DNA from: a virus
Taxonomy: Duplodnaviria > Caudoviricetes
DNA: 61,761 nt
Strand: one strand, 5' to 3'
Virus record (IMG/VR): IMGVR_UViG_3300028581_000044
Span: 1 to 61,761 of that record
Part shown: positions 3,460-56,030 of the stretch, one piece after another
Position numbering within the stretch: position 1 is the stretch's first letter
Layout: each line of letters opens with the position of its first letter
The notes under the pieces: generated by a model
What the model was told of the DNA's origin: nothing
Database searches by the model: none
Seen by the model: the letters and a program-made list of their open reading frames with translations, nothing else
Translations under genes and position numbers: made by a program

Positions 3460-4160
3460 AAAAATTAACAACGGAAGAATTTATAGAAAAAGCTATAAAA
3501 ATTCATGGTGATAAATATGATTATTCATTAGTAGAATATATAGGTAATAAAAAAAATATAAAAATAATAAAGGATGGAATCATATTCGAACAATGGCCAA
3601 ATACTCATTTAAAAGGGTGGGGAATGACTAATAAAGATACAAAAGAAGAATTTATAGAAAAAGCAAAAAAAGTCCACAGAAACAAATATGATTATTCACT
3701 TGTTGAATATAAAAATAATAAAACACATATAAAAATAATATGTCAACATCATGGTGTTTTTATTCAAAAACCAAATAATCATTTAAATAATCATGGTTGT
3801 TTTAAATGTAAAAAATCATCTGGTGAAATTAAAATATCTTATTTATTAGATGATTTTGGAATAAATTATATACAAGAAAAAAAATTTAATGATTGTAAAA
3901 ATATCAAATTACTTAAATTCGATTTTTATTTACCTAATTATAATTTATGTATTGAATATAATGGGATACAACATTATCAACCGAAAAAATATTTTGGTGG
4001 TAAATTAAATTTTGAAAAGATTATAAAAAATGATAAATTAAAAATCGAATATTGTATTTTAAATAATATTGATTTGTTGATAATAAAATATGATGAAAAT
4101 ATTGAAAAGATTATTTTAAATTATATAAATAAAAAAAACCAGTCAAAAAATTATATTTGA
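3456..4160 (+). CDS. putative homing endonuclease (N-terminal repeats plus Vsr/DUF559-like PD-(D/E)XK domain)
   Basis: Two EEFIEKAxKxHxxKYDYSLVEY repeats; FDFYLP...CIEYNGIQHY. Confidence 0.8.
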   Translation: MKKLTTEEFIEKAIKIHGDKYDYSLVEYIGNKKNIKIIKDGIIFEQWPNTHLKGWGMTNKDTKEEFIEKAKKVHRNKYDYSLVEYKNNKTHIKIICQHHGVFIQKPNNHLNNHGCFKCKKSSGEIKISYLLDDFGINYIQEKKFNDCKNIKLLKFDFYLPNYNLCIEYNGIQHYQPKKYFGGKLNFEKIIKNDKLKIEYCILNNIDLLIIKYDENIEKIILNYINKKNQSKNYI

Positions 4161-4170
4161 CTGGGTTTTT
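4131..4170. terminator. bidirectional terminator between the endonuclease gene and tmRNA
   Basis: A8-CCAGTCAAA...TTTGACTGG-GT5. Confidence 0.65.
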
Positions 4171-4174
4171 AGTG

Positions 4175-4565
4175 TGGAGATGGAGGGATTCGAACCCTCG
4201 TGCACAAATTATTTTAAGAATCGTCTACAAAGTTTATACAGTTCTTAAGGACTGTCAACTATTTGATTTCGATATATTAGGAAATCAAAAAACCGTCAAT
4301 TGGTTTAATATTTTACTGTTCCGTTAAACCTTTCTAATATCGGATGAGTTACTTTTTTTCTTAAGCTGCGAGAGCCATTCTAGCTCTTTCTACACGTGCA
4401 AAAGGGGTAACACCCTTAGTTACACTTGTTTGGATATTCATCATATCCTCAGCGACAATTGTATTTGCTTTTATTGTTTTCCTATCAATTTATTAATCGC
4501 TTCCTAGAAAGTGCGATACTTGCAGATTCACTATTACGAATTCATGTCTATTCCAAGTCACCCCC
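4175..4565 (-). ncRNA. ssrA: tmRNA
   Basis: 5' GGGGGTGACTTGGAATAGAC pairs with 3' CATCTCC-A with a G3:U70 Ala identity pair; T-arm GAGGGTTCGAATCCCTC; tag ORF 4468-4361 ends ALAA*; CCA not encoded. Confidence 0.93.
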
Positions 4566-4817
4566 GGTTGATTGTGATTATCAAAACTTTAAACTCTTAT
4601 CCATGCTTTGTGTCTTTCGACTACCGACTTTAATGGGAGTATTTTGACTTATCCATTTTTTTCACAATCATATTCAAAGAACGATATTAGTGTATTTGAG
4701 ACTTTTCAGATAAAAATCCTACCAATTTGGTTTATCAGATTTTTCTCCTGTCTGAAAATACACATAATTTATATATTTGTATTTTATATTGTATTATTTC
4801 CAATTTGTTTAAAAAAT

Positions 4818-5100
4818 GACTTGTATGGAGGGTGTCCAGTCGCGTTGTTTCAAGCCGGCTCGCTGGGGAGATTCCGTTTCGCACCAGTATTAATGTGTGG
4901 TGTATTTTCTACATTGTGTACGGCAAAGACTTCCAGTCCGCATAGAGCACATCTATTGGTTAGATTTGTTACGGGAGCAAGCCCCGACCAAGTTCTGTTG
5001 ATAAAAATCATTAGCATGGTACTACTCACTACTAAGAACCGCAAATGTGATACGCCTCAAGTATTCCATCGGTTTCGACACCTTTCAACTCCATCAAGTC
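4818..5100 (-). ncRNA. unknown structured RNA, ~283 nt
   Basis: GC-rich island; terminal stem GACTTG-ATGGAG/CTCCAT-A-CAAGTC, inner GGTGTC/GACACC, several hairpins; TACCTTTG promoter upstream. Confidence 0.65.
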
Positions 5101-5103
5101 AAA

Positions 5104-5137
5104 GAACATAATTTCACTACGAACATAATTTCACTAC
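5104..5137. repeat. 17-bp perfect tandem duplication
   Basis: GAACATAATTTCACTAC x2. Confidence 0.9.
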
Positions 5138-5139
5138 GA

Positions 5140-5172
5140 CAAAGGTAGGATCTTTTATCGAAATAAAAAAAT
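5140..5172 (-). promoter_or_regulatory. Bacteroidota-type sigma70 promoter for the ncRNA island
   Basis: TACCTTTG (TAnnTTTG) preceded by TTTTTTATTTC. Confidence 0.55.
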
Positions 5173-5501
5173 TATAGGGTAACTTCTAATACAGCTTTAT
5201 CCTTATTCTGATTTTCGAATACAATAGTATTATCTTTTTTGTTTGGATCTAGATATACTTCAAAATTTCTAAGGAATCCAACTTTATGAATTTCGTTTTC
5301 GTTTTCTGATTTTTTTGAATATACAAAATTCACATTATCAATAATATCCAGTATATTTTCGTTTACCGTTAATCTATCAAATTCTATTTCATTATTTTCT
5401 ATGTAATAATTATTGAAATCGTAAATTCTAATTACCAAATAAACAGGTATCATCGATTCATCTTTAATATCTTTTAAATTTATTTTTGATATGTCCATCA
5501 T
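5172..5501 (-). CDS. hypothetical protein
   Basis: ORF within a minus-strand operon with overlapping stop/start codons. Confidence 0.7.
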   Translation of the reverse strand: MMDISKINLKDIKDESMIPVYLVIRIYDFNNYYIENNEIEFDRLTVNENILDIIDNVNFVYSKKSENENEIHKVGFLRNFEVYLDPNKKDNTIVFENQNKDKAVLEVTL

Positions 5502-5875
5502 ATTGTCAAATCTTTTATATAAGGGTATATTTGTTCTTTTATTTCATCTTCTGTTATACCCGGATAACGTTCTAAAACCATTTCAGAAAGTTTTTTAGAA
5601 TCGTTTTCTAATATTTCTCTTTTTTGAAGGTGATAACTCATTTCTTTCTCGATAACCAAAATACTTTTTTCTATTTCACCTATTTTCAATATGAGATCTT
5701 CTTTATTTTCAATACCATCCAAATCATCTTTCAATTTGTTTAATTGGTCAAGATAAACCATAACAACTTCTTGTCTTTCGTTCGCTATTTTTAGTGAACT
5801 CAAGAAATCCCTTCTTATTCTGACAGCTTGTTCTATAAATCTTAAATCTATTTTATATTTACTCATATTCACCAT
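5498..5875 (-). CDS. hypothetical coiled-coil protein
   Basis: Helical heptad-like ORF. Confidence 0.7.
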   Translation of the reverse strand: MVNMSKYKIDLRFIEQAVRIRRDFLSSLKIANERQEVVMVYLDQLNKLKDDLDGIENKEDLILKIGEIEKSILVIEKEMSYHLQKREILENDSKKLSEMVLERYPGITEDEIKEQIYPYIKDLTI

Positions 5876-28394: not shown

Positions 28395-30191
28395 ATGAAA
28401 GAAAAAAAATTAACAATAGAAGAAAGATACCAACATTTAGAACACAGGGATCAAATTTTATTAAGACCAGATACATATATAGGTACGACAATTTCTGAAG
28501 ATAGAAATATTTTTGTAGTGGATGACATAAACAATTTAGAAAATATAAAAATGGTCAATAAAATTGTAAAATTCAATCCCGGTTTTTTAAAAATAGTAGA
28601 TGAAATTTTAACCAATGCATCTGATCATTTCTTGAGAACAGGAAAAGTTAAATACATCAAAGTAAATGTAGAAAATGATTTCATTTCAATAGAAAATGAT
28701 GGTCAAGGAATTCCTGTTGAAATACATAAAAAAGAAAAAAAGTATGTTGCAGAATTAATATTCGGTAATTTATTAACTTCGGAAAATTATAATGATAATG
28801 TTGAAAGAACATGGGGTGGAAGAAATGGCGTAGGAGCAAAGGCAACTAATATTTTTTCAAAAAGATTTATAGTCGAAACCGCTGATGGTAAAAAAGTATT
28901 CCATCAAGAGTTTTCAGAAAATATGTCAAAGAAAACAAAACCAAAAATAAAAGCATCTAAAAAGAATTATACTAAAATAACATTCTATCCCGATTTTGAA
29001 CGTTTTGAAATGACAGGTATTGACGATGAAACTAAATCTGTTATCATAAGAAGATGTATTGATATAGCTGTTTACTGTCAAGGAATCAAAGTTTATTATA
29101 ACAATTTTCAAATACCAGTTAAGAACTTCAAAGACTATATGAAAATGTTTGTCGGTGATGATTCAGAACTATTCACAGAAAAACTTGACGATAAATGGGA
29201 AATAGGTATTTCCAAATCACTCGATAACGGTTTTTATCAAGTATCTATGGTTAACGGTATATCTACATATAAAGGTGGTACACACGTTAATTATATTACA
29301 AATCAAATAGCAAAAAATACTCAAGAAATATTAGCAAAGAAATATAAAAAATTGAATATCAAACCAAATGATATCAAAAATAATATTTTTCTTTTTGTAA
29401 ATACTAAAATCATCAATCCTAAATTTGATGAACAAGCTAAAGAAACACTAGCTAGTAAAATAAATGGTGGTAGTCCTGAATTATCAGAAAAACTTATAAA
29501 ACAGTTTTCCAATTCACAAATCATTGAAGATGTTATCAGATTCCTTAATATCAAAGAACAAGTTGATACTAAAAAAGAAATTGGGAAACATAAAATTAAA
29601 ATTTCTAAATTAGATGATGCCAAAAAAGCTGGAACATATGAAAGTGATAAATGCTGCCTAATGTTATGTGAAGGTGATTGTTTACAAGAGGATACTGAAA
29701 TAAATATTATCAGAGATGGTAATAATATTAAAGTGAAAATGAAAGATTTAAAATTAAATGATGCTGTTATAACACATAATAATAATATTGGTTTAATTAA
29801 TAATATATCCAAAAAAATTGAAAAAATTGTAAAAATAAAATTAAAAAACAATCTAATATTATTGTGTTCTGAAAATCATAAATGGTATGTTTATGATAAA
29901 AAATTAGATAAATTTATTTTCGTAAAAACAAAAGATTTGGATATAAAAAAACATAGAATGATTATAAATAAAAACACTTTTTATAATGATTTTTTAAAAA
30001 TAAAAGACATATTTGATTATGATAATAAAAAATATGAAAAAATTATTTTTTTAAACAATGGTGAAGAAATATTATCTACAAATAATCATTTATTTTCAAT
30101 ATTTAATATTATTGATTATAAATTTGAAATGATTTCATGTATAAATTTAAATAAAGATATTCATTATATTGTTTCATATGAAAAAATATAA
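28395..30191 (+). CDS. type IIA topoisomerase N-part (ATPase domain to Toprim EGD) plus split-intein N-fragment
   Basis: RPDTYIG, DEILTNASD, GGRNGVGAK, LCEGD followed by CLQEDTEI. Confidence 0.9.
   Translation: MKEKKLTIEERYQHLEHRDQILLRPDTYIGTTISEDRNIFVVDDINNLENIKMVNKIVKFNPGFLKIVDEILTNASDHFLRTGKVKYIKVNVENDFISIENDGQGIPVEIHKKEKKYVAELIFGNLLTSENYNDNVERTWGGRNGVGAKATNIFSKRFIVETADGKKVFHQEFSENMSKKTKPKIKASKKNYTKITFYPDFERFEMTGIDDETKSVIIRRCIDIAVYCQGIKVYYNNFQIPVKNFKDYMKMFVGDDSELFTEKLDDKWEIGISKSLDNGFYQVSMVNGISTYKGGTHVNYITNQIAKNTQEILAKKYKKLNIKPNDIKNNIFLFVNTKIINPKFDEQAKETLASKINGGSPELSEKLIKQFSNSQIIEDVIRFLNIKEQVDTKKEIGKHKIKISKLDDAKKAGTYESDKCCLMLCEGDCLQEDTEINIIRDGNNIKVKMKDLKLNDAVITHNNNIGLINNISKKIEKIVKIKLKNNLILLCSENHKWYVYDKKLDKFIFVKTKDLDIKKHRMIINKNTFYNDFLKIKDIFDYDNKKYEKIIFLNNGEEILSTNNHLFSIFNIIDYKFEMISCINLNKDIHYIVSYEKI
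29679..30188 (+). mobile_element. split intein N-fragment (170 aa)
   Basis: Block A Cys1 CLQEDTEI; block B-like CSENHKW and STNNHLF. Confidence 0.85.
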
Positions 30192-30263
30192 CCTTCGGAT
30201 AAAAACAACCATCAAGAAAAAACAGATATATTTTATTTAATATATAAAAAATAAAATTATAAA

Positions 30264-31403
30264 ATGATATATTTATGTTATGAGTATAAAAATAAAATAA
30301 TTAAAACAAAATCAAAAAGTTTTATAGATGAAAATAATTATAATGTTAATAAAATAGCTTTTTCTTTAAAACAATCTTTGATGAAAAAATTCAAAATAAC
30401 ATTAGAAGAATATGCAAATTATCTCGGATTTAATATTCATAGATGTGGTTTTTGTGGTGAATTTGCTAAAATTGATATAGAAATTAAATTTGAAAATTAT
30501 AAAAAACGTAAAGAAATAATTATAACCAAAGTAACTTATCCAAATAATTATTATTGTAAAGGACAAAATGAAAATTGTGATGGAAAAAATTATAATCCAA
30601 ATTCTATTGTTTTTGTAAGTAAGACAAGAAATATTGATAATGACAATGCTCTTATTTTAATACACGAAAGAAATAAAAGTCCATTTTATTCTGAAAATTA
30701 TAAAAATATAGATGATTATAAAAATTATCAGTCATTAGAAAATAGATTAACTAAAGAAAAATATCTTATTTTTATAAAAAATTTAAAAAATTCAAAAACA
30801 ATTGAATATTACATTGACAAATTTGGTAAAGATAATGGTGAATTAATATGGAAAAATATTAATAATAAAAAAAATTCAATGTCATTTGATTATTTCTTAA
30901 AAAAGAATAATTTCGATTATGAAAAGTCGATAATAGAATACAAAAATAGAATTAGATCTATTTGTCCAAATATAAAAAATTTTGGAAATTATTCACCGGC
31001 ATCTTTTAATTTTTTTAAAAAATTATTAACTAAAATAAAAATAACAAATTATTTATTTGGGAAAAATGAATTAATATTAGAATATTTTGATGAAAATAAT
31101 AAAAAAAGGAAATTTTATTATGATTTCGTTGATTTGGATAATAATATTATTATAGAATACAATGGGTTAATATGGCATCCAAACAAAGAAAAAATGTCAA
31201 ATGAACAATTGAACAAATGGTATTTTCCATTCAATAAATCTATAACCGTAGAAGATTTAAATAAAAAAGATGAAATTAAAGAAAAAGTGGCATTGGATAA
31301 TAATTATGTTCAAATATCTATTTGGGACTGTGATAATGACGACCACAATATAAATATTATTATAGAATTATATAAAAAATTAAATATAATAAAAAATGAT
31401 TAA
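30264..31403 (+). CDS. free-standing Vsr/DUF559-like endonuclease between the intein halves
   Basis: FYYDFVD..IIIEYNGLIWH...KDEIKE.VA...ISIWD. Confidence 0.75.
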   Translation: MIYLCYEYKNKIIKTKSKSFIDENNYNVNKIAFSLKQSLMKKFKITLEEYANYLGFNIHRCGFCGEFAKIDIEIKFENYKKRKEIIITKVTYPNNYYCKGQNENCDGKNYNPNSIVFVSKTRNIDNDNALILIHERNKSPFYSENYKNIDDYKNYQSLENRLTKEKYLIFIKNLKNSKTIEYYIDKFGKDNGELIWKNINNKKNSMSFDYFLKKNNFDYEKSIIEYKNRIRSICPNIKNFGNYSPASFNFFKKLLTKIKITNYLFGKNELILEYFDENNKKRKFYYDFVDLDNNIIIEYNGLIWHPNKEKMSNEQLNKWYFPFNKSITVEDLNKKDEIKEKVALDNNYVQISIWDCDNDDHNINIIIELYKKLNIIKND

Positions 31404-31527
31404 AAATTATTTAGAATTGGTTGATATCGAAAATATTGAATTTACAAATATATATGATAATATGGTTGATATATCTGTTGATGTAGACGAAACATTTTCT
31501 TTATCAAATGGGATTATATCACATAAT
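31396..31527 (+). mobile_element. split intein C-fragment (44 aa)
   Basis: MVDISV (block F), NGIISHN followed by Ser+1 (block G). Confidence 0.9.
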
Positions 31528-33546
31528 TCCGCATCATCTTCTGCAATAGCTGGTTTATCAGAAGTAGACTCATCTTACTTCGGTATATTTCCATTAAGAG
31601 GGAAACCATTGAATGTTAGAGATACCAATCTACAAAAGGTTAGAGAAAACGAAGAAACTAAAAATATTATAAACATTCTTGGTTTGGAATTTGGTAAGAA
31701 ATATACCGAAACATCTAAATTAAGATATGGTAAGGTTGTTTTCTTTTCTGATCAGGACGTTGACGGGGCACATATCAAAGGTTTACTTATTAATATGATT
31801 GATACTTTCTGGCCAGAACTTCTTAAATTGGATTTTATTTATGAATTCATGACACCAATCATGAAACTTTATGATGATAAGAAATTCTTAAAATACTTTT
31901 ATCGTTTAAGTGATTGGGAAAAATTCAAGAATGAAAACGATGTTAGTAAATACCATAAAAAGTATTATAAGGGGTTAGGAACGATAGAACCCGATGAAAT
32001 GAAGGGATTCTTCAAAAATATAAACAAGCATCTTATAAGGTTTCATTATGACGCCAAAAAGGATACTAACAATCTTATTGACTTGGTTTTTGATAAAAAA
32101 AGAGCTGATGAAAGAAAAGAATGGATGAAAAGTTATAATCCTGTTGATTTCATAGATAAATTTAATGTAAAACAAACCTACGACAAATTTATCAATAGTG
32201 AATTGATGGAATGGAGTATGGCAGATAATAACCGTATGATTCCAAACTTGATGGATGGTTTTAAACCAGTTCAAAGAAAAATCTTATATGTATTTCAAAA
32301 AGAAAACATTAAGGGTGAAATAAAAGTAAATTCACTATCCGGATCCTTAATTAAAAGTGTAGCTTATCATAATGGTGATGTTTCATCTTCTGGAGCTATT
32401 GTGGGTATGGCACAAAATTTTGTTGGTTCCAATAACCTAAATCTTATTTTACCGAAAGGACAATTTGGTTCCCGTTTAAAAGGTGGTAAAGATTCTGCGA
32501 GTCCTCGATATATTTTCACTAAATTAAATGATGTAACACCATATATTTTTAGGTCAGAAGATAATGATATATTAACTTATCAGAATGATGATGGATCTCC
32601 AATTGAACCTGTATTTTACGTTCCAATTATACCAATGGTATTGGTAAATGGTGCTAATGGTATTGGATCTGGTTATTCGACAATAATTCCTAGTTACAAT
32701 CCTGTTGAAATAATCACTTACTTACAAAATAAAATTAAGGGTAAGAAAAATATAGAATTGAAACCTTATTATAAAGATTTCAAAGGTTCTATAACTTTGG
32801 ACATTGAAAATAAAAGATATATTTCAAGAGGATTGATGAATAGATTAACTGATTATATTTATGAAATAAATGAATTACCATTATGGACTTGGAATGATTC
32901 TTATTATGAATTTTTAGATGATTTATCAGAAGATAAAAAGGATGATAAGGGTAAGGTAATAAGAAAAACATATATTCGTGAATGGGTGAAAGACGGCAAC
33001 GATAAAGATATCAAGATAAAAATCTATTTGATAAAAGACAATGTTCCGAAGGAATTCATAGAAAATATTTGGAAATCTTTAAAAATGGAAAGTTACATAC
33101 CATTTAGTAATATGCACCTTTTTGATGAAAACAAAAAGATAACTAAATATGATACACAATATGAAATTATAGACAATTATTATAATGTTCGTTTGGATTA
33201 TTATGATAAAAGAAAACAATTTCAATTAAAAAAGATAAAATATGAGATAGAGGTCATTAAAAATAAAATGATATTTATCAAAGAAGTTATCGAAGATAGG
33301 TTGAAAATAAACAAGAGATCTAGAGAACAAATCGAAATAGACATTGATAAATTAAAATTGATGAGAGTTAATGATTCCTATTCCTATTTATTGAATATGT
33401 CAATTATTAGTTTAACGAAAGAAAAACTAGTTGAATTGAAAGAAGAATATGAAAGAATGAAAGAAAAACATAAGGTTTTGGATTCAACAAAAATTGAAGA
33501 TATTTGGTTGGGTGAATTGGATGAATTGAAGAAAAAAATGAAATAA
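31396..33546 (+). CDS. split-intein C-fragment plus topoisomerase II C-part (Toprim and GyrA-like cleavage core)
   Basis: ISHN|SASS, FPLRGKPLNV, DQDVDG, YYKGLGT, DGFKPVQRK, ASPRY catalytic Tyr. Confidence 0.92.
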   Translation: MIKNYLELVDIENIEFTNIYDNMVDISVDVDETFSLSNGIISHNSASSSAIAGLSEVDSSYFGIFPLRGKPLNVRDTNLQKVRENEETKNIINILGLEFGKKYTETSKLRYGKVVFFSDQDVDGAHIKGLLINMIDTFWPELLKLDFIYEFMTPIMKLYDDKKFLKYFYRLSDWEKFKNENDVSKYHKKYYKGLGTIEPDEMKGFFKNINKHLIRFHYDAKKDTNNLIDLVFDKKRADERKEWMKSYNPVDFIDKFNVKQTYDKFINSELMEWSMADNNRMIPNLMDGFKPVQRKILYVFQKENIKGEIKVNSLSGSLIKSVAYHNGDVSSSGAIVGMAQNFVGSNNLNLILPKGQFGSRLKGGKDSASPRYIFTKLNDVTPYIFRSEDNDILTYQNDDGSPIEPVFYVPIIPMVLVNGANGIGSGYSTIIPSYNPVEIITYLQNKIKGKKNIELKPYYKDFKGSITLDIENKRYISRGLMNRLTDYIYEINELPLWTWNDSYYEFLDDLSEDKKDDKGKVIRKTYIREWVKDGNDKDIKIKIYLIKDNVPKEFIENIWKSLKMESYIPFSNMHLFDENKKITKYDTQYEIIDNYYNVRLDYYDKRKQFQLKKIKYEIEVIKNKMIFIKEVIEDRLKINKRSREQIEIDIDKLKLMRVNDSYSYLLNMSIISLTKEKLVELKEEYERMKEKHKVLDSTKIEDIWLGELDELKKKMK

Positions 33547-49672: not shown

Positions 49673-50470
49673 ATGAGAAAGAATAACACATACAACATTT
49701 TTCTGGACGATTCCAGAAATACTACCGAAGCTTTTTATAAGTTTAACAATCCTATTTATCGTAATGATATCGTAACCATTAAAAGTTACAAGGATTTTGT
49801 TGAACATATAGAAACACAATTTACAAAGGATGGTTCATATCCGGGATTTATCAGTTTTGATTATCACTTATCTAATGTAACTATGCAGGTTACGGAAGAT
49901 AAAACAATTTTCTTCAATGAAGAATGTTATCAGGAAACAGGATTAGAATGTGCTATTTGGATTATCAATTTTTGTAAGAAACATAATCTACCTGTTCCAA
50001 AGTATTTCGTCCACGATGACAATTCATATGGTAAAAGGAAAATTACAAAATTTTTCACAGATTCAGAAAAAGGAAAAACCGTTCCAGATCCTTTTGAAAT
50101 AGTAACACCTATGGAAACACCCATTGTGGAAGTTAATCCAGTGGTTATGGAAGAAACACCCGTTGTGGTGGAAGATACACCCGTTGTGGAAACTATCGAA
50201 GTTTCAGAAACATCAGATGAAAACAAACTTCCTTTTAGTCGTAAAGAATTTTTTGCAATTGTAAAGAGTTATTTAACTTCCGGTCCAAAAAGTAGGGAAG
50301 ATTTAAACGCTATATTAATAACTCAATTTCCAGAAAATACACCAATGAATCAAAAAATGACCAAAATTAATAACCTTTTGGCTATCTATAAGATTCAAGG
50401 AAAGATTGAAAACGTAGGAACACGCAGAAAATCACTTTGGGTATTAACTGAAAATCAAAAAGTTAGTTAA
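49673..50470 (+). CDS. cyclic-phosphate-processing receiver-like domain, linker and C-terminal winged helix
   Basis: IFLDDSR, ISFDYHL, TGLECAIW, VHDDN..G; C-terminal GKIENVGTRRKSLW. Confidence 0.65.
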   Translation: MRKNNTYNIFLDDSRNTTEAFYKFNNPIYRNDIVTIKSYKDFVEHIETQFTKDGSYPGFISFDYHLSNVTMQVTEDKTIFFNEECYQETGLECAIWIINFCKKHNLPVPKYFVHDDNSYGKRKITKFFTDSEKGKTVPDPFEIVTPMETPIVEVNPVVMEETPVVVEDTPVVETIEVSETSDENKLPFSRKEFFAIVKSYLTSGPKSREDLNAILITQFPENTPMNQKMTKINNLLAIYKIQGKIENVGTRRKSLWVLTENQKVS

Positions 50471-50552
50471 CGCTATAAAAAAAGCTATCAGAAATTTTTT
50501 TATTTTAAATTAAATTCTTAACATTGTAAAACGAAAATCAAATTAAAATTTT

Positions 50553-51290
50553 ATGGCAACAGACAATAATAAATCTTGGTGGAAAAAAGCGTTGTTTGAT
50601 TCTGAAGCTGGTGGTGAAACAACACAACCAGTACAAACAGTATCACAACCCACACCTACAACTAAAGTTAATACGGTGAGAAAACCATCTCCTGTATTTT
50701 CAACCCCTACACCCACACCAACCATTGTTGATGATGGTGAAGTTGATGAAAGTTATATTAATCATTTATATGACTTCATGACAAAAAACAATTTTCAGGG
50801 ACCGGATTATTATGAATTCGCTAACTCACTCGATGAAATGACAAGTGAATTAGCAGGTGCTTCGGAAGAAAAGATTTTTCAAATGACTTACAAAGTCGCC
50901 TACAAACAAAATCTTCCAGTACCCACTCTTATTGAAACCGCACAAAAATATGTTCAACTATTTACACAACATAAAAAAGAATTTGATGATTATCTCAATT
51001 CTGAATCACAGAAAACAGTTGGTGTAAAGGTTGATGAAAATACGAAACTCCAGAAATCGAATGATGATAATTCCAAGAAGATTGAAGATCTTAGGAAACA
51101 AATCGAAACTATGGAAACTCAAATTGAAACCAATAACACCAAAATCGAAGAAAACAATGTTTTTATCGAAAGTGAATCACAGAAATTGGTTATCAAGAAA
51201 AGTAAATTCGAAAAAGCTTTTACCATCATTATCACAAAGATTAATGATGATATTAGTAAAATTAAACAGTATCTCACAACAATTAAATAA
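50553..51290 (+). CDS. coiled-coil protein, first gene of the ABC operon
   Basis: GPDYYEF motif and C-terminal coiled coil. Confidence 0.7.
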   Translation: MATDNNKSWWKKALFDSEAGGETTQPVQTVSQPTPTTKVNTVRKPSPVFSTPTPTPTIVDDGEVDESYINHLYDFMTKNNFQGPDYYEFANSLDEMTSELAGASEEKIFQMTYKVAYKQNLPVPTLIETAQKYVQLFTQHKKEFDDYLNSESQKTVGVKVDENTKLQKSNDDNSKKIEDLRKQIETMETQIETNNTKIEENNVFIESESQKLVIKKSKFEKAFTIIITKINDDISKIKQYLTTIK

Positions 51291-51319
51291 ATTAAACAAG
51301 TAAATTAACAAGTAAAATT

Positions 51320-52330
51320 ATGGAAAAGAAAGTCTGGACAGGATCAGAAAGGGTAATGGGTTATATCGTTGCTCTTGCAATTTTAGGCGGAATCGGATAT
51401 GGACTCTTTATTGTTCTCCCGTTCCTAATTACATTAGTCACCAACCTTTTTATCTTTTTAGGTATGGTAGTTGGTGCAACACTTGTCGTTGGTGTCATCT
51501 GGAACAATCGTAAGATGATTTCCCTCGCCTATCAGATTATCATTAAGAAAATTTGGTCAGCAATGATCAATAGTAATCCAATTGCGATTATGGAAATCCA
51601 GTGTAACACTTGGATAAAACAAAAGGAAAAACTTAATGACAATATTAAACAGTTATCCGCAGCTGAACAGGATCTTTTAAGGGTAATGGAAGAAAATAAA
51701 GACGAAGCTAACGATAAATTTAAGGAAGCTAAAGCCGCAAAGGAATTAGCCGAATCAAGGAATAACCCGGATTACGCTAGGAAATCTAACAAGAATGCGA
51801 TTATGGCACAACGTAGGGTTGAATCCAATAAGATGTTTATTCCCAAACTTCAAGCCATTCAGACAGCACTCAATTATTGTACAAGGGTATATGACGCTTG
51901 GACGGATGATATTGAACTTTTGAAGGACGATATTAGGGAAAAGAAACGTAACCTTTCAATCCTTTCCAAAACAAGTGGTGTTTTTGAAATGGCACAGTCA
52001 TACCTCAATGGTAATTCAAACGAAAGGATTATGTTTGATGAAGCTAACGAAGCATACGCACAGAGAATTTCTGAATATGTTGCCAATATTAAGAGGTTTA
52101 CCGAACAGACTAAGGATTGGGTTTTCAACAAAGATATTCAGGAAGCAATTCAGACTGAATCTGGACAACAGTATCTTTCAATGTATGATGAAGATTCCTT
52201 TGGAAAACTCACAGATTTCAAGGCATTGATGGAAGCTCAGCCAGCAACGTTCGTAGAAGTGTCCGACAACATGAACAAAATTGACACAAATACCTTTACA
52301 AAGGGTAGTTCATTTGACGGTTTAAAATAA
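51320..52330 (+). CDS. 2-TM long coiled-coil protein (PspA/IM30-like architecture)
   Basis: Two TM helices, NPIAIME, then an extended coiled coil. Confidence 0.55.
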   Translation: MEKKVWTGSERVMGYIVALAILGGIGYGLFIVLPFLITLVTNLFIFLGMVVGATLVVGVIWNNRKMISLAYQIIIKKIWSAMINSNPIAIMEIQCNTWIKQKEKLNDNIKQLSAAEQDLLRVMEENKDEANDKFKEAKAAKELAESRNNPDYARKSNKNAIMAQRRVESNKMFIPKLQAIQTALNYCTRVYDAWTDDIELLKDDIREKKRNLSILSKTSGVFEMAQSYLNGNSNERIMFDEANEAYAQRISEYVANIKRFTEQTKDWVFNKDIQEAIQTESGQQYLSMYDEDSFGKLTDFKALMEAQPATFVEVSDNMNKIDTNTFTKGSSFDGLK

Positions 52331-52392
52331 ATAATCAAATCAAATATCAATTAAATCAATTAGTGTTTAACAAATTTAAAAAAGGAGAAATT

Positions 52393-53979
52393 ATGAATTT
52401 TTTTAGAAAACTTGGATGGTTAAGTAAGACGATTATCGCCCTTATCATCATTGTTCCGGCCGCTATCTTTGCATGGCCTCACATTAGTAAAAATCTCGGT
52501 GGTGGTTGATCCGCCGATTTAGTTGGATCTCTTAACACTTGGAGTGGTTTCGCACCTATTGTGTATCTTAATGGTGGAAAAGATGTAAATAAGAATTCAC
52601 GTCTTACCAAAGAGTTTGATCTTACTTTGAAGATTGAACAGATGGATGTTCGTCAGACTTGTATTGACGCTCTTAAAGAAGGTAAGGTAGATTTCATTTA
52701 CACCACCACCGATATTTCACCGACCGAAAATGGTGAAGCATCTGACCTTATGAAGTTGAATGTTGTTCAGATTCTTAAAATTGATGATAGTCGTGGAGCC
52801 GATGTTATCGTAGGTGTCCGTACTATTAAAAGTGTAGCGGATTTGAAGGGACAGAAAATTGCTGTCGCCGTTGGTACAGCATCACATACTCTTCTTTTAA
52901 GGGTACTTGAAACTGCCGGTCTTACACAGAATGATGTGGAACTTGTAAAGGTTTCCGATGGTATTGAATCCGCTAAAATGTTTAAGAGTGGTGAAGTACC
53001 TGTAGCTGTTGTTTGGAGTCCTGACGATGGTGATTGTTACGCAGCTATCGCTGGTTCACATGAAGTATTTTCAACCAAATACGCTCGTAACATTATCATG
53101 GACGGTATCGTTACCACAAAGGCTATTTTCGATAAGAAAAAGAAATCCTTTGAAAAACTGGCTATCGCTTGGTTAACAATCAATGCAGAAACAAACGAAC
53201 TTTGTAAGAAGATTGATCCAAATACTTTTACCGATGAAATTGCTAAAATGGCAGATGGTAAACCGAATAGTATTCCTCCAATGTATGATAGTATCGCTAC
53301 CACTTTTTCCAAAGCTTTCAACGCACCAAAATTCGTTGTAGCAGATGGTATGTATAAGGTAAGGTACGCTACTTATGGTGATAACGTAAACTTCTTCGGT
53401 CTTAACTCAAGTTTTAATGGTGTGGATGGTGATGAACTTTATACCAAAATGACGAGGTCATATACAGAAGTCGGTTTAGCTAAAAACCCACTTCCTTGGC
53501 GTCAGGTATCAGATCCAAGTCTTATTCAAGGTATCACAACTTTGAGTGGTGGAATTCATTCAGCTGAAGGTGAAGTCGTATTCACGAATGTATCCGAAGA
53601 AGTAAAAACTGCAGATGCATCAGCAGTAAAACCAGTTTCAATTGTATTCTCCGTTGGATCTTATACACTCGATGATGAAGCTATGTCAAAAATTGACAGA
53701 GAAATCATCCCAATTGCTAAGGGTGTAGCCGGTGGTTCAAAATTCCGTTTGGAAGGTAATACTGATAAGACTGGTAATTTCCAGAAAAATATCACCCTTT
53801 CACAGAAAAGGGCACAGTCAGTCGCAGACTATATGATTAAAAGAGGTATTAATCCATCTTATATTGTAGCTGTTGTTGGTAACGGTTCAAAGAAACCCGT
53901 AGTTGGTTGTGAATCGGAAAGTACAGAAGAAATGAAATCGAAGAATCGTCGTACTGAATTCCAACTTATCAATAGGTAA
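52393..53979 (+). CDS. NMT1/SsuA-like substrate-binding protein with C-terminal OmpA domain, interrupted by in-frame TGA at 52507-52509
   Basis: AAAGGAGA RBS; N-terminal TM; TWSGF, DSRGADVIV, DLKGQKIAV; EGNTD..N..LSQKRA..NRRTEF. Confidence 0.8.
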
Positions 53980-53988
53980 TTTGTGATG

Positions 53989-54018
53989 GGAGTTCCTACC
54001 AATCGTGGTAGGAACTCC
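53989..54018. promoter_or_regulatory. 13-bp hairpin between the SBP and permease genes (mRNA stabiliser or attenuator)
   Basis: GGAGTTCCTACCA-atcg-TGGTAGGAACTCC, no U-tract. Confidence 0.65.
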
Positions 54019-54051
54019 ATTAATATTTTCTAATCGTATAAACCAAACCCA

Positions 54052-54855
54052 ATGAACTTACAAATAAAAGAATTATTTAAAATGGATGGTCAGGTTGACA
54101 ATAAAACCGCGACCATAACACAAGTAATAGGTTGGATTCTTCTCATATTCTTTTGGTGGTTGACTTCAACAATGGGGTGGATTAATAGTCGTATTCTTCC
54201 TAACCCAATAAGTGTTATTATGTCATACGGGGAAATGATCAAAGACCCCACTTATAATTTGATAAATAATACTTTTTATTCGTTGTCAATCAACTTACTT
54301 GGATATGCTGAAGCTATTCTTATAGCTATTCCTCTTGGTTTTCTTATTGGTTTATTTCCAATATTTAGATCTTTAATGAGTAAACAAATTGATTCAGTTC
54401 GATTTTTACCATTACCCGCCGCTACCGGTATTTTTATCTCATTATTTGGTATTTACTATGGTGTTAAAGTTCACTTTCTGGCATTTGGTATCGCGGTATA
54501 TTTGATTCCTGTTATTGTGCAAAGAATTGATGAAATAGACAAAATACATAAACAAACAATTTTAACATTAGGTGCAAACAGATGGCAACAAATAAGACAT
54601 CTTTATCTACCATCTGTCATTTCCAGAGTATCCGATGATATAAGGGTTTTAGTAGCAATATCTTGGACATATGTTGTAGTTGCTGAAATGATTAACAATC
54701 AAGGTGGATTGGGTGGTATGACTTATCCAATATCAAAAGCTTCAAGAAGTGATATGTTATACGCTATTTTATTGGAAATTATATTTATTGGATATTTATC
54801 TGATAAATGTTTCAAGTGGATTGATAAGGTTAGTTTCAAATTTAAACACGTATAA
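54052..54855 (+). CDS. NitT/TauT ABC transporter permease
   Basis: ILPNP, RFLP, EAA-like TLGANRWQ..LPS, VVAEM..GLG. Confidence 0.9.
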   Translation: MNLQIKELFKMDGQVDNKTATITQVIGWILLIFFWWLTSTMGWINSRILPNPISVIMSYGEMIKDPTYNLINNTFYSLSINLLGYAEAILIAIPLGFLIGLFPIFRSLMSKQIDSVRFLPLPAATGIFISLFGIYYGVKVHFLAFGIAVYLIPVIVQRIDEIDKIHKQTILTLGANRWQQIRHLYLPSVISRVSDDIRVLVAISWTYVVVAEMINNQGGLGGMTYPISKASRSDMLYAILLEIIFIGYLSDKCFKWIDKVSFKFKHV

Positions 54856-54857
54856 AA

Positions 54858-56030
54858 ATGTCAAATATATTTACTAAAAAAATTAAACCGGAACCCGTTG
54901 TTGAACCTGTTGTTGAACCTGTTGTTGAACCTATTGTCGAACAAGTTGAAGAACCAAAAATTGAAAATAAGTTTGACGAATTAAAGGTTGAAAACAAATC
55001 AAAACCGGAAATCGAACACAATGAACCAAAAAGAATTGTTCCGAATGGTGATAAACCAGAACCAAAACAAGATATTTTTATCAATACATTCAAAGATTCT
55101 AGTGTTATTGAATTAAATAGTCCGAATCAAAATTACGAGAAAGTAAACATCGTTGATATTGTTAATGTAAAACAAGAATATGATGTAATTCTACAAACCG
55201 TACCCGGGAAAACAGACAGTCCCGGAAACGGAACACAAAAAAAGAGTTCAATGTTTATTAATCCATCTCAACCGAAACCGATTAAAGGGAAAAATGTTGT
55301 CTTTGAAAATCTAAATTTAAGTATTAAAGATATCAAAGGTAGGGGACAATTCGTAACATTACTTGGGAAATCTGGTTGTGGAAAATCAACGATTTTACGT
55401 TATATTTGTGGATTACAAAAACCGACATCGGGTGATATTTATCTTCACGGTTCAAAATTAAAAAGTGATAATCATATTCCTATGGTTTTTCAACAATATT
55501 CATCTTTTCCTTGGAAAACTGTTTTAGATAATGTAGCTCTTCCATTGATTCTCAATAAAGTTCCGTTAAAACAAGCACGTGAACAAGCTATGGAAATGAT
55601 TAAAATTGTTGGTTTAGAAGGTCATGAATCGAAGTGGGCTAAATACCCTATCCTTTCAGGTGGTCAGTTACAAAGAGTTGCCATAGCACGTAATTTGGTT
55701 GCCAATCCAAATTTTTTGTTAATGGATGAACCATTTGGTGCTTTGGATACCGTAACTCGTCGTTCTATGCAGTTATTTCTTCGTAAAATATTTCAAGATA
55801 ATAATGGATTGGATCCAACAATTTTGTTAGTAACACACGATGTCAGGGAAGCTGTTTTTCTTTCATCAGATATTTTTATTCTTGACGCCAACCCAGCAAA
55901 AGTTCGTTGTCATATAGAAATTGATTTACCGAACGAAAGAAAGAATTCCTTAAAAAGAGAAGAAAAATTTCTTGAATATGTAAACTATATTGATGATTTT
56001 TCAGATAAACTCGAAGCTGAAAAGAAATAA
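54858..56030 (+). CDS. NitT/TauT ABC transporter ATPase with N-terminal EPVV-repeat extension
   Basis: GKSGCGKS, LSGGQLQR, LLMDEPFGALD, VTHD. Confidence 0.92.
   Translation: MSNIFTKKIKPEPVVEPVVEPVVEPIVEQVEEPKIENKFDELKVENKSKPEIEHNEPKRIVPNGDKPEPKQDIFINTFKDSSVIELNSPNQNYEKVNIVDIVNVKQEYDVILQTVPGKTDSPGNGTQKKSSMFINPSQPKPIKGKNVVFENLNLSIKDIKGRGQFVTLLGKSGCGKSTILRYICGLQKPTSGDIYLHGSKLKSDNHIPMVFQQYSSFPWKTVLDNVALPLILNKVPLKQAREQAMEMIKIVGLEGHESKWAKYPILSGGQLQRVAIARNLVANPNFLLMDEPFGALDTVTRRSMQLFLRKIFQDNNGLDPTILLVTHDVREAVFLSSDIFILDANPAKVRCHIEIDLPNERKNSLKREEKFLEYVNYIDDFSDKLEAEKK

Follow-up and report, generated by a model that had tools for sequence, protein, structure and literature searches.

A putative stable noncoding RNA of an undescribed family in a variable accessory slot beside the tmRNA gene of a huge phage

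What is encoded by a short GC-rich island next to the tmRNA gene of an otherwise AT-rich phage sequence is the question raised by this locus. The window, by which we mean the whole 61,761-base stretch of the IMG/VR record that was analyzed, has an overall GC content of 0.271. Within it the GC content rises to 0.46 at 4801-5000, against about 0.16-0.35 in the flanks, and the peak of 0.49 in the island (calculated over 150 nt at a time) is the maximum of the whole window, which agrees with the sharp GC-rich island described in an initial annotation of this DNA. The structured RNA core is placed at 4818-5100 (283 nt, GC about 0.46), with the minus strand favored, on the basis of the GC peak, the predicted folds, the RNA contigs and the absence of an Rfam match.

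The initial annotation had assigned the RNA to a phage, and this is borne out by the gene order that the window has in common with the 735-kb LR756501.1. The record appears to be a fragment of a huge phage related to LR756501.1. The topoisomerase of the window has 59% identity to those of LR756501.1 and LR756503.1 (uncultured phage records of 735,411 bp each), and its 371-aa protein is 61% identical to that of L002, a relative in IMG/VR. The order DHFR, HNH, tmRNA, slot, 109-aa gene, 125-aa gene and 371-aa gene is common to the window, L002 and LR756501.1, and each also has a helicase gene close by, which is oriented differently in L002. The window further encodes T4-type topoisomerase II subunits, an SbcC-like protein, a helicase, GroEL and DHFR, together with HNH and GIY-YIG homing endonucleases, an ADP-ribosyltransferase and a host-like transporter/OmpA gene block. 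In the consulted part of a survey of huge phages (PMC7162821), the largest phage genome reported is 735 kb, all the largest genomes of that paper are assigned to the Mahaphage clade, and Bacteroidetes hosts are predicted for five genomes of >634 kb. We infer that LR756501.1 is the 735-kb genome of that survey. The true genome size of the phage studied here is probably several hundred kilobases, since the gene order matches 716-727 kb of the 735-kb phage. CheckV gives a completeness of 7% for the 61.8-kb record and likewise 7% for the 26-kb relative L002.

The most direct evidence on the nature of the island comes from public sequencing runs, 20 of which contain part of the 1.5-kb stretch 4100-5600, including six RNA libraries. 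Contigs were aligned from four runs, namely, the RNA runs X8 (lake water) and X16 (activated sludge, from a different study) and the DNA runs X7 and X9; the RNA runs X13, X17, X18 and X20, which hold small shares of the words, were left out of the count. X8 contains a 265-nt contig that is confined to 4820-5083 (4 differences, 1 gap) and, separately, a 382-nt contig that matches the tmRNA at 4175-4557; the depth is 0 over 4559-4813 and 5120-5476. X16 yielded a 187-nt contig on 4857-5042 with 13 differences and a 576-nt contig composed of the tmRNA and 185 nt of leader (4175-4750), and its depth is 0 beyond 5069. The island flanks are covered by the DNA runs X7 and X9; the signal is therefore an enrichment at the RNA level and not contaminating DNA. 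Regions lacking RNA cover served solely for contrast with these DNA runs. Discrete accumulation, that is, RNA contigs confined to the island between silent flanks, was found in both of the RNA runs aligned, in contigs that show neither the strand nor the true ends of the molecule. The island accumulates as RNA separately from the tmRNA and the flanking genes, and its level is of the same order as that of the phage tmRNA, with k-mer depths of 11.9 versus 23.1 in X8 and 5.1 versus 14.6 in X16. The proposal of the initial annotation that the island is a noncoding RNA is supported by these data, as the RNA-library contigs cover the island and leave the flanking genes without cover. The lineage has been sampled in lake water, freshwater, sediment and activated sludge.

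The RNA could not be assigned to a known class. At the gathering thresholds of Rfam, the tmRNA is the sole match and the island matches no family. At E<=10 on 4600-5300, both strands, three chance-level matches were obtained (two snoRNA families and Gut-1), none of which comes near its cut-off, and the RNase P families, whether bacterial A/B, archaeal, type T or nuclear, are not among them. A search of the whole record with RF00010 gave 0 matches at E<=10, with one candidate scored, whereas the control was found in 11 of 14 genomes. The models of GOLLD, ROOL, HEARO, raiA and OLE have no match on the island, and Intron_gpI has none at E<=10 on 4600-5300; the island is flanked by a promoter block and tandem repeats and not by exons, as the insertion of a group I intron needs. 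ARAGORN detected only the neighboring tmRNA and no tRNA gene in the window. At lowered thresholds (70-80%) it returned only low-grade calls, including a "tRNA-Tyr with a 188-nt intron" that spans the island, and by eye the island has no T arm. The Rfam check that the initial annotation had proposed thus returned no known class, RNase P included. The island matches no known RNA family and probably represents an undescribed one. The new noncoding RNA class suggested initially is a candidate in this respect, represented by near-identical variants and one more diverged relative seen only through its translation.

It has to be considered that the island might encode a protein or peptide instead, either in a 167-aa open frame on the plus strand (4608-5111) or in a short ORF such as the 25-codon ATG frame from 4816. 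The initial annotation saw no credible ORF; the 167-aa frame does span the island, but it does not behave as a gene. An argument for coding is that the frame is open throughout 4608-5111, that 141 codons are still open in one relative, and that 42 consecutive residues (77-118) are identical in this relative. The relative, P0001 (141 aa, 75% identity), is the sole one among 1.84 billion representative proteins, and its detection is biased towards variants in which the frame is still open. One further entry, P0002, which is identical to the query over its full length, was found in a collection of 5.8 billion proteins, and the frame has no match in Pfam. Within codons 77-138, 57 of 62 residues are kept in P0001, compared with 3 of 24 in codons 31-54, which are the noncoding opposite strand of the tmRNA leader. 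Where the window reads K-N-D-L-Y-G-G-C-P, P0001 reads N-N-F-M-E-G-Y-P, and its M-E-G is ATGGAGGG (4825-4832) read in another frame, which implies a pair of frameshifts; the simplest account would be that 4 nt were lost and 1 nt was gained around nucleotides that are themselves conserved. The end of P0001, M-V-T-T-H-Y-stop, is exactly the reading given by the insertion of a T after 5019. This 1-nt insertion is present in all four runs aligned and alters the last 27 codons of the frame. The conservation is thus one of nucleotides and not of a protein. Moreover, the first 70 codons lie outside the RNA contigs on the island; they are antisense to the tmRNA leader and promoter and have no cover in the X8 RNA, and two of the five substitutions before the frameshift fall on third codon positions (counted by hand). 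By this pattern of change, the 167-aa plus-strand frame appears not to be coding, and we give very little credence to a protein or peptide product. The hypothetical protein P0001/P0002 is probably a mis-annotation of an RNA gene by public gene callers.

The fold of the RNA was examined next to these data. As the initial annotation had stated, the two ends of the island pair, in three blocks (4818-4823/5095-5100, 4825-4830/5089-5094 and 4831-4836/5077-5082) whose pairs have probabilities of 0.81-0.99 whichever strand is folded. Read on the minus strand, the 5' strand of this closing stem is 5077-5100, which includes a 6-nt bulge at 5083-5088, and the 3' strand is 4818-4836, the partner of 5077-5082 and 5089-5100. 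With 18 end-to-end pairs, the island surpasses all 150 dinucleotide shuffles per strand (maxima of 17 and 15). At least 10 such pairs are not rare in shuffles (20/150, or 13%, for the plus strand and 16/150, or 11%, for the minus strand), and for this reason the pairing of the closing stem is suggestive but not overwhelming. The folding energy of the whole molecule departs only mildly from that of shuffles, with z = -2.13 for the plus and -0.82 for the minus strand. Both the minimum free energy and the consensus folds are multi-branched. All of the internal hairpins named initially are present in the sequence, but GTTCT/AGAAC is unused by the best folds. The hairpin ATCTA/TAGAT (4951-4965, minus strand) is predicted with a probability of about 0.72-0.77 and also occurs in the consensus folds; GACT/AGTC (4927-4939, minus strand, with the flanking pair 4927/4939) and CGGG/CCCG (4972-4986, minus strand, with the pair 4976/4982 and 4977 in the loop) occur in the consensus folds of four haplotypes. 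A further hairpin at 4996-5013 (minus strand), with the basal pair 4996/5013, belongs to the consensus fold of both strands.

Natural variation bears on both the base pairs and the strand. Five haplotypes were compared, one of which was inferred from the translation of P0001, where synonymous changes and everything beyond 5035 are unseen. The substitutions in the aligned runs are 4844 G>A, 4939 C>T, 4963 G>A, 4977 G>T, 4982 C>T, 5036 G>T and 5055 C>A, and the changes inferred from P0001 are 4834 G>A, 4963 G>A, 4964 A>Y, 4996 T>C, 5010 A>T and 5013 A>G. One of them is compensatory: the pair 4996/5013 changes from U-A to C-G on both sides in P0001, as L130P forces a C at 4996 and S136G forces a G at 5013. 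In the same hairpin, I135F (5010 A>T) breaks the 4999/5010 pair. As deduced from the translation, the outermost 6-bp part of the closing stem is partly deleted in P0001, and 4834 is an A whose partner lies in the unseen part. No predicted pair involves the changed positions 4977, 5036 and 5055 in the consensus folds; pairs are broken on both strands by 5010 A>T and, if GTTCT/AGAAC forms, by 5036 G>T. An energy comparison found that natural single changes stabilize the fold no more than random ones. Taken together, the predicted fold is only partly supported.

With regard to the strand, to which the initial annotation did not commit itself, the change G4963A, which X8 and X16 carry and R119N of P0001 implies, yields a G.U pair if the RNA is read from the minus strand but C.A if it is read from the plus strand. 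As a minus-strand pair, 4927/4939 changes from G.U to A-U in X7 and X9, and 4976/4982 changes in the same way in X8. The pairs 4953/4963, 4927/4939, 4976/4982 and 4844/4855 are canonical in all variants on the minus strand (G-C, G.U or A-U), whereas each of the same positions gives A.C in some variant on the plus strand, a comparison in which 4927/4939 and 4976/4982 were chosen by a consensus fold that rewards such changes and 4844/4855, paired only in the plus-strand fold and absent from the minus consensus folds, was read by hand for the minus strand. Several findings speak against the minus strand: the folding energy is better on the plus strand (z of -2.13 versus -0.82), the plus-strand G.U pairs 4845/4854, 4997/5012 and 5049/5065 become A.C on the minus strand, and the X8 contig ends 2 nt from 4818 and 17 nt short of 5100, which fits a plus-strand 5' end at 4818. 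Weighing both sides, we suggest that the RNA is probably transcribed from the minus strand.

The position of the island is informative as well. The slot between the conserved 109-aa gene and the tmRNA promoter has different contents in all three phages: in the window it holds the island with two 17-nt repeats, in L002 two genes of 243 aa and 120 aa, and in LR756501.1 a YqeY-family gene (Pfam E = 4e-39) together with a 72-aa gene. All the genes that fill the slot in the relatives have the orientation of the flanking genes and the tmRNA, which is that of the minus strand of the window, and this context also speaks for the minus strand of the island. The YqeY-family gene (719071-719517 of LR756501.1; 19071-19517 of L058) is a translation-linked accessory gene beside the tmRNA. 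That the island is a remnant of the relatives' slot genes is ruled out by blastx, in which the best match had an E value of 0.15 over 14 residues. The contigs of X7 depart from the sequence of the window at 4814 and 5139, and the variable unit is therefore 4815-5138. Read on the minus strand, this unit starts three bases past a TACCTTTG box and ends with a run of six T after the closing stem; with such edges it looks like a promoter-to-terminator cassette.

The box, a candidate -7 box of the Bacteroidetes type, lies at 5148-5141 (minus strand), just outside the variable cassette. The initial annotation had noted a host-type promoter about 40 nt away, and TACCTTTG is indeed found 41 nt upstream of 5100, but the motif is weak alone: TAnnTTTG occurs 76 and 64 times per strand, compared with 51 +/- 7 in shuffles, and is common in the AT-rich window. 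The early expression suggested initially would rest on this motif of low information. LR756501.1 has a TAnnTTTG box at nearly the same distance past the stop of the homologous gene, and L002 has a near-match there. Between the box and the core lie the two tandem 17-nt repeats (repeat family D4; 5104-5137, minus strand), which would form a 5' leader on the minus strand; the duplication is perfect in the window, and the relatives in X7 and X9 have a single copy. The six-T run (4812-4817, minus strand) directly follows the closing stem and may be a terminator tail. At the left edge of the cassette, a block at 4770-4812 (minus strand) is conserved with 88% identity to L002 over 43 nt and is probably the upstream promoter of the tmRNA. 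The X16 RNA contig 4175-4750 stops at the tmRNA side of this block.

The tmRNA gene itself occupies 4172-4565 on the minus strand and was identified by Rfam (RF00023, 60.1 bits), ARAGORN and the X8 RNA contig 4175-4557. According to ARAGORN its tag is unusually long, with 31 residues and ALAA at the end. Between the promoter block and the mature tmRNA 5' end (4566-4769, minus strand) there are an extra 185-200 nt that are absent from L002 and LR756501.1; this leader is skipped by some X9 contigs and present in the X16 RNA contig. Its tmRNA-proximal 90 nt (4608-4697) have 29 of 30 codons unchanged in the P0001 variant, and 4698-4769 are scrambled. A second variable point lies in the same intergenic region as the cassette, at 5173-5180, where the X7 relative has 444 extra letters right past the stop of the 109-aa gene.

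The homologue search that the initial annotation had recommended among huge-phage metagenomes brought no homologous DNA. In IMG/VR, an exact-word scan with an island 18-mer gave 0 matches, a 17-mer gave two in GC-rich contigs that are alike over 22-23 nt only, and the pattern of the island ends gave 0. A 20-mer had three matches in JGI metagenomes that share just the 20-mer and one match in GTDB genomes with 21 nt shared. No match was found by blastn of the island against 50,697 phage records. BLAST on the record of L002, on LR756501.1 and on eight further relatives gave chance matches of 13-30 nt only, and nhmmer --max on LR756501.1 gave a best E value of 20; these 10 related phage records, about 1.9 Mb in all, hold no copy of the island. 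Queries with a tmRNA word and a single helicase protein returned no new relatives, whereas a search with a helicase alignment found nine loci, eight of them new. A scan of IMG/VR with the alignment of the open frame and P0001 had no match, and shorter translated fragments were not found either. So far, the RNA family appears to be confined to one lineage.

Considering these results, we suggest that the island is probably a stand-alone gene for a stable, highly folded noncoding RNA of an undescribed family, carried in a variable accessory slot of a Mahaphage-type huge phage. Transcription of the minus strand would be directed by the TACCTTTG box (5148-5141), pass through one or two copies of the 17-nt leader repeat and stop at the T-run after the closing stem. 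The transcript would then be trimmed to a core of roughly 265-283 nt, which the 18-bp closing stem may shield, allowing it to build up to a level of the order of that of the tmRNA. Considering the protected closing stem, the accumulation comparable to that of the tmRNA and the strong conservation beside decaying flanks, our tentative guess is that the RNA might act in trans during infection as a protein-binding scaffold or decoy, like 6S, Y and other stable RNP RNAs, and not by base-pairing. When duplexes of the island with the tmRNA precursor were predicted, they did not exceed those of shuffled sequences. A bolder proposal, which we regard as rather unlikely, is that the island would be the first-seen member of a new class of functional phage RNAs, a self-contained promoter-to-terminator RNA cassette that moves between huge phages and is dedicated to ribosome rescue or to the takeover of the host, for example, as a minimal ribozyme or RNP that matures the long tmRNA precursor or as a host-protein decoy.

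Other origins of the RNA signal have to be weighed against a stand-alone RNA gene. The island lies directly upstream of the tmRNA and probably on its strand, and it could be a cis-acting or by-product piece of the tmRNA unit, co-transcribed from TACCTTTG, whether as a stable fragment left by processing, as a terminator or insulator ahead of the tmRNA promoter, or as a part of the precursor that helps the tmRNA to mature. The unusual leader of about 185-200 nt in the X16 RNA contig, which L002 and LR756501.1 lack, would suit such a unit. However, the contigs of the island and of the tmRNA are separate, with 4763-4813 uncovered in both RNA runs, and the relatives have working tmRNA genes without the island; a terminator, for its part, needs far less than a 283-nt multi-helix RNA. 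We consider this origin improbable. The inverted repeats at the ends of the island could also be those of a small non-autonomous MITE-like element, whose terminal repeats would pose as a closing stem and whose RNA signal would be incidental. The presence or absence of the island among relatives, with sharp breaks at 4814 and 5139, and the homing endonuclease genes nearby are consistent with mobility of this kind. Such an element is nevertheless quite improbable: the island is present as a single copy in 61.7 kb and has none in the 10 related records (about 1.9 Mb), its end sequence has 0 matches in IMG/VR, and its edges lack a target-site duplication. In addition, the outer repeat is the least conserved part in P0001 and the interior the most conserved, and the RNA accumulates though the flanks are silent.

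A very diverged or reduced housekeeping RNA was considered as well, with an RNase P RNA on the plus strand as the best candidate. The core of RNase P RNA comprises P1-P2-P3-P4, with a conserved A-rich J3/4 strand and with a U bulged out of P4, and the RNA cleaves the 5' leaders of pre-tRNA and pre-tmRNA. The island offers, on the plus strand only, helices in the place of P1 and P2 and a possible P4-like helix of seven pairs, AAGCCGG (4852-4858) with UCGGUUU (5069-5075); GCUC/GAGC could be P5, and a GAGCAAG is similar to J5/15. The resemblance of these motifs to the RNase P core was noted by eye. The long leader of the phage tmRNA precursor would need 5' processing, and huge phages carry many translation-related genes according to the consulted part of the survey (PMC7162821). 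Several features contradict such an assignment: no RNase P model matches at E<=10, there are just 15 nt between "P2" and "P4" and hence no room for P3, and "P4" has neither the bulged U nor a GGAAA before it. Furthermore, the X8 change G4977T breaks "P5" without compensation, while 4977 lies in the loop of the alternative CGGG/CCCG hairpin, and the polymorphisms and the context favor the minus strand. An RNase P RNA or other reduced housekeeping RNA is therefore highly improbable. A term search of the same survey (PMC7162821) found no occurrence of "RNase P" and a single mention of noncoding RNA, in another context.

A stand-alone stable RNA of this kind can be compared with several known systems. 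The stable RNAs C and D of phage T4 (species 1 and 2), which are encoded in its tRNA gene cluster, are about 120-140 nt long and abundant, and their function is unknown. Like the island, they are stand-alone small stable RNAs among translation RNA genes with free-standing homing endonuclease genes nearby. The island differs from them in its length of 283 nt and in lying beside a tmRNA, with no tRNA gene in the window, and the likeness is one of description. GOLLD and ROOL are, like the island, large, GC-rich, multi-helix orphan RNAs that are often borne by phages, and they occur near tRNA genes. They are about two to three times longer than the 283-nt island, which has no match in Rfam at gathering thresholds or at E<=10. 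The 6S and Ms1 RNAs, the latter about 300 nt long, resemble the island in being stable and abundant and in having a long terminal stem, and they act in trans on a protein, as decoys of RNA polymerase. In contrast to 6S, the island is multi-branched and not a rod with a central bubble, and it has no match to the 6S, 6S-Flavo and Bacteroidales-1 models. Bacterial RNase P RNA (RF00010, RF00011) shares with the island an accumulation of the housekeeping type, paired ends and a few plus-strand motifs, but its type A form is 80-120 nt longer, the covariance models fail, P3 is missing, and the evidence on the strand of the island is opposite. The phage "morons" are comparable in their organization, as they too occupy variable slots in the form of promoter-to-terminator units that one lineage has and whose place is taken by unrelated genes in its relatives, although the cargo of the island is a structured RNA and not a protein gene.

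Huge phages are known for tRNAs, tmRNAs and translation proteins, and their noncoding RNA content has scarcely been examined. The island RNA is conserved beside decaying surroundings and appears to be exchanged like an accessory gene. The accessory slots of phages can thus carry RNA genes, which a protein-centered annotation misses or mislabels, as in P0001 and P0002. If the island RNA does bind a host factor or process RNA, it would represent a new route by which a phage controls a host of the Bacteroidetes type.

Some features elsewhere in the window are also worth recording. The topoisomerase II is split as in T4 (28395-33546), and its two subunit genes are separated by a 379-aa ORF without a family match (30264-31403). 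In the ORF of the large subunit, residues 440-520 weakly match intein splicing (E = 1.5e-4), below the cut-off. The host-like gene block at 49673-56030 has a raised GC content and encodes a protein with a cREC_REC (cyclic-phosphate receiver) domain, an NMT1/OmpA fusion, an ABC permease and an ABC ATPase.
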